Sequence record: PZ386965.1 | Length of the DNA: 64,000 nt | Strand: one strand, 5' to 3' | From: a phage | Shown: one piece after another, positions 38,945 to 39,862 of the stretch | How the letters are laid out: each line of letters opens with the position of its first letter | How positions within the stretch are numbered: the stretch's first letter is position 1 | Position numbers and translations under genes: made by a program | The notes under the pieces: model-generated | The model's database searches: none | Seen by the model: only the letters and a program-made list of their open reading frames with translations | What the model was told of the DNA's origin: nothing

Positions 38945-38986
38945 TTATACCTTGTTGGGGTTTCCACCTACTAGGTAAGTGTTTGT

Positions 38987-39078
38987 ACGAAACGCCGGGA
39001 TTTGAACCCGGTTATTAAGTAGTTGACGCTACTCAATATTTTTAAAAGGCCATATCTCGACCATATCCGAACGTTCCG
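38987..39078 (-). ncRNA. tRNA-like stable RNA (perfect 7-bp acceptor stem and T-arm, non-canonical core)
   Basis: 5' CGGAACG pairs with 3' CGTTTCG; T-arm CCGGG-TTCAAAT-CCCGG; D and anticodon arms do not fold canonically; could correspond to T4 species 1/2 RNA. Confidence 0.35.
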
Positions 39079-39246
39079 TCAAAAACGCTACTCGGCTTAC
39101 GGCAAAGATATTTCCTCGAATCGTTAATTAGGTGCGCCGTTTCTGCTGTGATGTAAGGGGATATTAACAAATCGTAAAGATTTATTAAGACCAGTCCTTA
39201 CTCAGGGAACATCAGTCCGACGACTTGCCGGTAGCGACCCGGCTTC

Positions 39247-39591
39247 TTATTTTGGCATATCATCAATTTGCTCTCGACGCCGACGCCATAGATTAATCGC
39301 TTCATAAACACATTCAGCATTTGGTATATGGCGACAATAGTATAGTGATTCGCGTTTCTGGAACCGATGTTGTAATGGAATTTCGTTTAAAAGGTCTTTA
39401 CGGTCAAAGTATTCAAAACTAGTTAACCCGGAACGGTTTTTAAGAAACTTCCAATGTCCGAATTCATTTTTAAAATAAACGTAATCAGCGTGTTGATATA
39501 ACGAATTAATCAACCGGTCGGAAATAACTGTATCTTGTTCGTTAAAATAAAACGTTAAATCATGAACTACTAAGTAAACATTACCTTTCAT
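39247..39591 (-). CDS. hypothetical protein (tRNA-region ORF)
   Basis: Trimmed to ATG (MKGNVYLVVHD) with GAGGAAAA SD; ORF-track extension would overlap tRNA-Arg. Confidence 0.4.
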   Translation of the reverse strand: MKGNVYLVVHDLTFYFNEQDTVISDRLINSLYQHADYVYFKNEFGHWKFLKNRSGLTSFEYFDRKDLLNEIPLQHRFQKRESLYYCRHIPNAECVYEAINLWRRRREQIDDMPK

Positions 39592-39609
39592 ATTTTCCTC
39601 ACTTAAAGT

Positions 39610-39686
39610 TGGTCGAGACAGAAGGATTCTAACCTTCAACCTACGGATTAGAAGTCCGTTGCTCTATACAATTGAGCTATGCCTCG
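39610..39686 (-). tRNA. tRNA-Arg (anticodon UCU), CCA encoded
   Basis: Manual fold: 7-bp acceptor, D-stem GCUC/GAGC, anticodon stem ACGGA/UCCGU with loop CUUCUAA, T-arm GAAGG-UUAGAAU-CCUUC, discriminator A, CCA. Confidence 0.8.
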
Positions 39687-39692
39687 AATATA

Positions 39693-39766
39693 TGACCCAG
39701 ACCAGATTCGAACTGGTAACCTTTCCCTTATGAGGGGACTGCTGCTAACCATTGAGCTACAGGGCC
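39693..39766 (-). tRNA. tRNA with CAU anticodon (Met or lysidine-type Ile)
   Basis: Manual fold: acceptor 6/7 bp, T-arm ACCAG-UUCGAAU-CUGGU, anticodon loop CUCAUAA; D-stem only 3 bp; no encoded CCA. Confidence 0.6.
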
Positions 39767-39862
39767 TAAATAACTTTCTATTATGAAAGGCACTTGAGGG
39801 AGCACCTTTGGTAATAGAGGGTAGATTAATAATAACACATAATTCTTAAAGCAAATTACGTT

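Follow-up and report, generated by a model that had tools for sequence, protein, structure and literature searches.

What is encoded in the roughly 300 nucleotides (nt) that lie 3' of two transfer RNA (tRNA) genes and a 115-aa open reading frame (ORF) on the minus strand of the 64,000-nt phage DNA of sequence record PZ386965.1 (the whole stretch analysed, hereafter the window)? These nucleotides contain no ORF longer than 42 amino acids (aa), and the 300-nt stretch as a whole folds far better than its shuffles (z=-5.35). The original prediction, which was made from the letters of the window, placed here a 92-nt element (38987-39078) with a 7-base-pair (bp) acceptor stem and a T arm, and considered it to be a stable RNA like species 1 and 2 of phage T4, a decayed tRNA, or a tRNA-like regulatory or processing signal. 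Our comparison with related phages indicates that 39250-38986 (minus strand) very probably contains the orthologs of T4 rnaD and rnaC at the 3' end of a tRNA operon, a reading to which we give a probability of about 85%. The rnaC RNA is a tRNA-shaped four-way junction of 136-139 nt that is supported by covariation. Together with rnaD it belongs to an RNA family that was known before, in a phage group that is likewise known, and the present finding is a rediscovery of this family in a Mosigvirus-type phage.

The rnaC and rnaD RNAs of T4 have been known since the 1970s. In the T4 annotation, rnaD ('species 2 RNA') occupies positions 71171-71053 and rnaC ('species 1 RNA') occupies positions 71046-70908, and the segment 39250-38986 of the window aligns base for base with both of them. 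By pairwise alignment with the T4 misc_RNA features, the predicted rnaD ortholog is located at 39250-39131 (minus strand, about 120 nt) and the predicted rnaC ortholog, delimited by the annotated ends of T4, at 39124-38986 (minus strand, 139 nt), and the two are separated by a spacer of 6-7 nt as in T4. The identity to T4 is 97.9% for rnaC (139 of 142 aligned positions) and 86% for rnaD. The rnaC copies of the two phages share the length of 139 nt, the place between rnaD and the operon terminator, and the predicted fold, and they differ at only three bases (position -1, one in helix P2 and one in the T loop). The rnaD copies share an invariant 5' hairpin, the closing stem, the 3' third and the position directly upstream of rnaC, while the central hairpin differs between them. 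When the window was compared with a covariance model of rnaC, all 143 model positions were matched with 164 bits (E ~1e-36), a score that includes the advantage of having the window's own sequence among the 22 sequences of the model. The proposal of a stable RNA like T4 species 1/2 was therefore right by direct homology.

The phage is a Mosigvirus-type T4-like phage, and its closest match over the region is phage GADS24, which is 100% identical. The region is carried by 806 phage records. Only a few of these (RB3, ATK48, T2L and RB5) annotate rnaC or rnaD and most do not; the closest record leaves the region blank, and other records place hypothetical proteins over it. We found no Rfam family for rnaC or rnaD either at the gathering threshold over the whole window or at E<=10 over 38700-40000, where the matches other than the two tRNAs were chance matches (PyrR, isrK, and plastid untranslated-region families on the antisense strand of the tRNAs). 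A blastn search of rnaD and rnaC against 5,426 complete Escherichia coli genomes gave no match, and there is thus no evident host homolog. When viral and bacterial genome collections were scanned with a gapped pattern, most matches were due to chance; five further phage copies remained after filtering, and no bacterial rnaC copy was seen among the matches listed for the bacterial collection.

The fold of rnaC was examined using 30 distinct sequences taken from GenBank phages, IMG/VR and metagenomes, which represent about ten T4-like lineages (Tequatro-, Mosig-, Karam-, Kagamiyama-, Winkler-, Kanagawa- and Gelderlandvirus, Marfavirus, and two more). The length of rnaC stays within 136-139 nt in all of them. 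RNAalifold gave a four-way junction with 42 pairs, 27 of which show compensatory changes. On the 30-sequence alignment, 97.0% of the cells of the consensus are paired and compensatory changes occur in 28 of 47 pairs (97.5% of cells were paired in the 22-sequence version). None of 500 column shuffles was as good, and slid controls paired at 36-49%. The minimum free energy structure of the window's rnaC folded as a single sequence is the same as the consensus fold (z=-4.96).

The acceptor stem of rnaC is formed by 39123-39117 (CGAUUCG) and 38994-38988 (CGUUUCG) on the minus strand through the pairs C-G, G-C, R-Y, U.U, U.U, C-G and G-C, the stem being closed by the two termini of the RNA itself. 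This stem is 99% paired and has one covarying pair. Pair 3:70 is A-U in 14 and G-C in 16 of the 30 variants, and the other Watson-Crick pairs are invariant, as are the tandem U.U and the 5'-end segment UUCGAGGA. Helix P2 (39116-39047, minus strand, 70 nt) takes the position of the D arm. It consists of five helical segments with compensatory changes in 17 of 21 pairs, and its length stays at 70-71 nt across the 30 variants. Distally (39056-39106, minus strand), P2 occurs as two unrelated sequence types that are alike in length and pairing and about 30% identical to each other; copies of type I are 94-98% identical across genera, while the remaining rnaC sequence of these copies is just 70-85% identical. 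An A-rich linker connects P2 to the 10-bp hairpin P3 (39038-39013, minus strand), which takes the position of the anticodon arm, measures 26 nt in 30 of 30 variants and has compensatory changes in eight of its ten stem pairs. The linker of the window contains CUUUUAA, a match to the anticodon loop of tRNA-Lys, and we considered whether it could act as a decoy for PrrC; this idea was rejected since the linker is not conserved and reads CUUACAA, CUUUGAA or CUCUUAA in other lineages.

A single unpaired base separates P3 from the T arm (39011-38995, minus strand, CCGGG-UUCAAAU-CCCGG), which was also present in the original prediction. The T arm is 100% paired with one covarying pair, and the middle pair of its stem is G-C in 16 variants, U-A in 12, A-U in one and U-G in one. 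The T loop follows the pattern UUCRANY in 27 of the 30 variants and reads UGCAUSC in the other three (LC53 and the Kanagawavirus type). In the same three variants, a G of the GG found in the internal loop of P2 is replaced by C, which hints at a contact of the D-loop/T-loop type between this GG and T-loop positions 2-3; the events are few and the geometry is unclear. The RNA ends with the 3' tail U-A-C-A-A (38987-38983, minus strand), in which U occupies the discriminator position and the annotated 3' end of T4 corresponds to 38986. The tail follows U[A/C]CAA in all 30 variants, being UACAA in the window and in 25 of the 30 and UCCAA in the five Marfavirus variants.

The apical hexaloop of P2 (UUGACG, 39082-39077) and the hexaloop of P3 (CGUCAA, 39028-39023) are exact reverse complements of each other. 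All six positions are complementary in 30 of 30 variants, and both loops are invariant in 25 of them. The other five, from Marfavirus, have UUGGCG and CGCCAA, a switch from A-U to G-C that preserves the full pairing. Since the stems of both hairpins covary, this complementarity could only be used in a loop-loop (pseudoknot-type) contact, and the constant lengths of P2 and P3 are consistent with a restricted geometry, for example through intramolecular docking. Two hairpin loops with six fully complementary nucleotides are also present in kissing-loop complexes such as ColE1 RNA I/RNA II and the HIV-1 DIS hexaloops. Unlike in those complexes, both loops of rnaC reside in one 139-nt molecule, and pairing may take place within one molecule or between two. 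We found no earlier description of the hexaloop complementarity in the literature, the papers of the 1970s lying outside the search.

The structure of rnaD was compared in 18 variants. Its 5' hairpin (39243-39227) has 5 bp, an invariant 7-nt loop (GUCGCUA) and a covarying closing pair. The closing stem GUCGUCG/CGGCG-C-AC, the internal segments and the 5' and 3' thirds of the RNA are invariant, and the central hairpin is variable, with three unrelated versions among the relatives. The consensus fold has 23 pairs, and the z-score of the minimum free energy is -3.1.

The fold of rnaC resembles that of canonical tRNA (RF00005) in several respects. Both have a 7-bp acceptor stem closed by the ends of the RNA and followed by a single base and a short tail, a T stem of 5 bp whose loop reads UUCRANY, and a four-way junction, and both occur in tRNA gene arrays. 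On the contrary, rnaC has a hairpin of 10 bp with a 6-nt loop instead of a 7-nt anticodon loop, a 70-nt helix in place of the D arm, a tandem U.U in the acceptor stem, no linker from the acceptor stem to the next helix, and a tail of UACA rather than NCCA. ARAGORN and RF00005 (E<=10, 38700-40000) gave no tRNA call on rnaC. The rnaC RNA is not a decoding tRNA. In its non-decoding 'top half' of acceptor stem and T arm, rnaC would resemble mascRNA of MALAT1, the tRNA-like domain of transfer-messenger RNA (tmRNA) and the tRNA-like module of bacterial YrlA/Y RNA, and release by ribonuclease P (RNase P) would be expected. None of these three kinds of tRNA-like RNA was found by Rfam at rnaC. For tmRNA, ARAGORN found none in the window and there was no match to an Rfam clan at rnaC; moreover, pair 3:70 of rnaC is A-U or G-C and never G-U as it is in tmRNA, and rnaC has no tag reading frame. 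YrlA (RF02553) gave a sole weak match of 17.8 bits, against a gathering score of 69, and this match lies on the true tRNAs at 39661-39721 and not on rnaC, which differs from bacterial YrlA/Y RNA in having no Ro-binding stem.

The gene context of rnaC varies among the relatives. It is flanked by tRNA genes in EcS1, LC53, KKP_3262, Melville and VPA32, with its start 5 nt past the CCA of the upstream tRNA and its end 9 nt short of the following tRNA in EcS1. No rnaD could be detected in several genera that have rnaC. In Dhakavirus (dhaeg 701-936 and IME341 701-934 of the retrieved stretches), rnaD, the conserved 3' trailer and the terminator are kept and rnaC is precisely absent. The rnaC gene behaves as a separable, tRNA-gene-like module. 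Marfavirus rnaC (PWKp18 and AmPh_EK29, 1200-1342 of the retrieved stretches), the form with the loop pair UUGGCG/CGCCAA, has an encoded UCCA 3' end that conforms to the tRNA-like NCCA. By its taxonomy line Marfavirus is not placed in Straboviridae, and in EK29 a coding sequence (CDS) for a 'hypothetical protein' is annotated over rnaC.

We then examined the genes upstream of rnaD. Over the 64 kb, two minus-strand tRNAs were called by ARAGORN and by Rfam at the gathering threshold, and no further tRNA was found by ARAGORN or by RF00005 at E<=10 over 38700-40000. The original count of only two canonical tRNAs, against eight in the T4 record, was thereby borne out; the tRNA set is indeed reduced, yet such small sets had already been documented for T4-like phages (PMC1524935). 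The first tRNA (39766-39693, minus strand, 54 bits with RF00005) has the anticodon CAU and was labelled tRNA-Met by the software. It is identical to T4 tRNA-Ile at 73 of 74 positions, which makes it an ortholog of T4 tRNA-Ile as judged by sequence. The accepted view of the CAU tRNAs in T4-like phages is that they are lysidine-modified tRNA-Ile, and these phages have 0-24 tRNAs each, with the CAU tRNA-Ile always among them (PMC1524935). The second is tRNA-Arg (UCU) at 39686-39610 (minus strand, called by ARAGORN, 71.1 bits with Rfam), and its encoded CCA, as predicted, is present at 39612-39610. The sequence of this tRNA (39610-39686, minus strand) is little like T4 tRNA-Arg(UCU), whereas the adjoining tRNA-Ile is nearly identical to that of T4, and the Arg tRNA gene appears to be of different origin. 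Between tRNA-Arg and rnaD lies the 115-aa ORF (39594-39247, minus strand), which matches phrog_3355 (E=1.5e-50); a Pfam search of this ORF gave no match. The ORF runs into the predicted start of rnaD, the overlap being its stop codon (39249-39247). It splits tRNA-Arg from rnaD/rnaC in this phage; a CDS is present at the equivalent place in G4507 and there is none in T4.

The order on the minus strand is thus tRNA-Ile, tRNA-Arg, the 115-aa ORF, rnaD, rnaC and a terminator, compared with tRNA-Arg, rnaD and rnaC in T4. The Rho-independent terminator was recognized from sequence and fold at 38945-38916 (minus strand) as AAGCCCCUUCC-GAAA-GGUUGGGGCUU followed by a U tract, and this region aligns with the T4 sequence downstream of rnaC. 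A pattern scan missed it because its stem contains two U.U mismatches, and the sole 'terminator-like' match of that scan was the rnaD 5' hairpin on the wrong strand (39227-39243, plus strand). About 60 nt upstream of tRNA-Ile, a MotA-box-like sequence TTTGCTTTA, followed by N12 and TATTAT, was read by eye at 39855-39829 (minus strand). Judged against the consensus of T4 middle promoters, this site resembles a middle promoter of the T4 type, which may serve the tRNA/rnaD/rnaC operon. The T4 tRNA cluster is transcribed in full from a middle promoter that lies immediately upstream of it; a single transcript of about 1.75 kb is regarded as the precursor of both small RNAs (species I and II) and of the eight tRNAs, and transcription is presumed to stop after the species I gene (PMC2330249). 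The layout in the window, including the putative middle promoter, matches this arrangement. Directly 3' of the operon terminator, the late-promoter motif TATAAATA is present at 38914-38907 (minus strand) and precedes the CDS 38871-38251 (minus strand), which encodes a lysine/proline-rich protein of 206 aa (phrog_2280). This protein begins with MYTFNEFLAE, an N-terminus similar to the sequence that targets T4 internal proteins to the capsid.

How might these RNAs be made and what might they do? From the published T4 work and the gene arrangement, the tRNA/rnaD/rnaC operon would be read as one precursor. The rnaC RNA would be released in the manner of a tRNA, with RNase P cleaving on the 5' side of the acceptor stem and the 3' end being trimmed, as suggested by its location within tRNA arrays with tRNA-like spacing in other genera. 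The mature rnaC might mimic the acceptor/T-arm 'top half' of tRNA, with the loop-loop contact locking a compact shape, and it might titrate or divert a host factor that recognizes tRNA; speculatively, this would be an accessory host-range function and not an essential one. We tentatively prefer the reading, itself speculative, that rnaC is a non-decoding tRNA 'top-half' mimic engaging a host tRNA-recognizing factor. A bolder version, which we regard as doubtful, is that the loop-locked mimic and rnaD have a part in the arms race of phage and host, where they would decoy or trigger a tRNA-directed defence or a tRNA-binding enzyme of the host and serve as host-range determinants. In this regard, one single-nucleotide polymorphism in rnaD was the sole change common to three lines of the T4-like phage BW-1 adapting to ECOR34, during which the virulence index increased from 0.17 to 0.98 (PMC12685909). 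If true, an arms-race role would explain the strict conservation of the RNAs, their dispensability in laboratory strains and the rnaD change in the ECOR34-adapted BW-1 lines.

Here, we need to consider several points that weigh against these interpretations. First, the 3' tail of the T4-type RNA is UACA and not NCCA, and three variants have no canonical T loop; strict tRNA mimicry is therefore not universal. Second, the covariation between the two hexaloops comes from one clade and probably reflects one evolutionary event. An intramolecular contact would also need a sharp bend of P2, for which the rough geometry is at the edge of feasibility, and dimerisation may be the alternative. Third, rnaD shows little covariation (5 of 23 pairs with compensatory changes), and its fold is less secure than that of rnaC. 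Fourth, the expression, the RNA ends and the stability in this phage are extrapolated from T4, where Northern blotting confirmed RNAC, and where RNAC was grouped with RNAD among the late RNAs (PMC9697503). Finally, the decoy idea remains speculative. What these RNAs do was stated as unknown in papers of 2010, 2022 and 2025 (PMC3014915, PMC9697503, PMC12685909), and our literature search found no functional study of rnaC or rnaD.

Of the other explanations, the one that survives best, which we still consider unlikely, is that rnaC is a cis-acting processing and stability module, that is, an RNase P/3'-maturation signal and a protective 3' cap with no role in trans. The mascRNA of MALAT1 would be its analogy. 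Such a role would suit the tRNA-like acceptor stem and T arm and the place of rnaC at the end of the operon, with just the terminator beyond it, in T4-type phages and Mosigvirus, from a cluster that is regarded as being made as one precursor (PMC2330249). However, rnaC lies in the middle of the array in five other lineages, where the flanking tRNAs already supply processing sites, and a cleavage signal needs neither strict invariance of the hexaloops nor a fixed length of P2. The excised T4 RNA is also detectable as a discrete species on Northern blots (PMC9697503).

Regulation in trans, in which rnaC and/or rnaD would pair with phage or host messenger RNAs via conserved single-stranded segments, seems to us quite improbable. 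Invariant unpaired segments do exist (the rnaD loop GUCGCUA, the rnaD internal loops and the A-rich linker of rnaC), and a 2022 omics paper used the wording 'small regulatory RNAs' (PMC9697503). Nevertheless, no target is known, and no trans-acting regulatory RNA of T4 had been functionally characterised according to a 2010 review (PMC3014915). The best-conserved loops of rnaC would pair with each other, and both RNAs are highly structured and tRNA-like, unlike typical small RNAs built of a seed and a terminator.

The 92-nt gene at 38987-39078, a non-canonical or class-II-like tRNA with the acceptor stem CGGAACG/CGUUUCG, is very hard to maintain. The 7-bp complementarity between 39078-39072 and 38994-38988 is present in the sequence, one G.U included, as is the T arm. 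When we tested this stem as an explicit alternative structure on 22 variants, there were no compensatory changes, and it was unpaired at one position in 11 of 22 (G.U to A.C), at a second in 4 of 22 and at a third in 2 of 22. Instead, the bases 39078-39072 are part of the P2 apical hairpin, a structure that is 100% paired and shows covariation at all five of its pairs; the supported 5' strand of the acceptor stem is 39123-39117. The apparent complementarity arises because the 5' strand of the apical hairpin, GCGUUUU, resembles the 3' acceptor strand GCGUUUCG. The boundaries at 38987-39078 were accordingly wrong and enclose the 3' two-thirds of the 139-nt rnaC. The stretch of about 170 nt described as following the element and free of ORFs (39079-39246) does hold only ORFs of 42 aa or less, and it actually lies upstream in the RNA sense, being composed of rnaD, the spacer and the 5' third of rnaC. 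Neither ARAGORN nor Rfam called the 92-nt element in the window. In sibling phages, ARAGORN called the piece homologous to 38987-39078 as a 94-nt tRNA-Lys(ttt) in G4507 (1167-1260 of its stretch) and as a 96-nt tRNA-Phe(gaa) in KKP_3262 (1545-1640 of its stretch), and such spans are carried as tRNA genes in several GenBank records. The triplets taken for anticodons are located in the linker of rnaC, which is poorly conserved, and they differ between the phages (Lys versus Phe); by covariation these calls inside rnaC are false positives.

A decayed tRNA or non-functional remnant, persisting merely through its residence in a tRNA cluster, would explain the lack of a 7-nt anticodon loop and of a normal D arm, the score below any tRNA threshold and the absence from relatives such as Dhakavirus, but it is scarcely credible and is contradicted by the length held at 136-139 nt and the loops and junction residues invariant over about ten lineages, by the 28 of 47 pairs kept through compensatory changes, by an identity to T4 that is higher for rnaC (97.9%) than for the adjoining rnaD (86%), and by the Northern blot detection of T4 RNAC (PMC9697503).

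The small tRNA sets of this group were already documented, and the interest of the locus lies in the corrected structure, in the complementary hexaloops and in the explanation of annotation errors. The rnaC and rnaD RNAs are missing from Rfam and from most phage annotations, and part of rnaC enters GenBank as a spurious tRNA-Lys or tRNA-Phe of 94-96 nt. The fold, the complementary hexaloops and the fixed helix lengths described here offer concrete mutants with which the function of rnaC and rnaD, a question of about 50 years' standing, can be approached.

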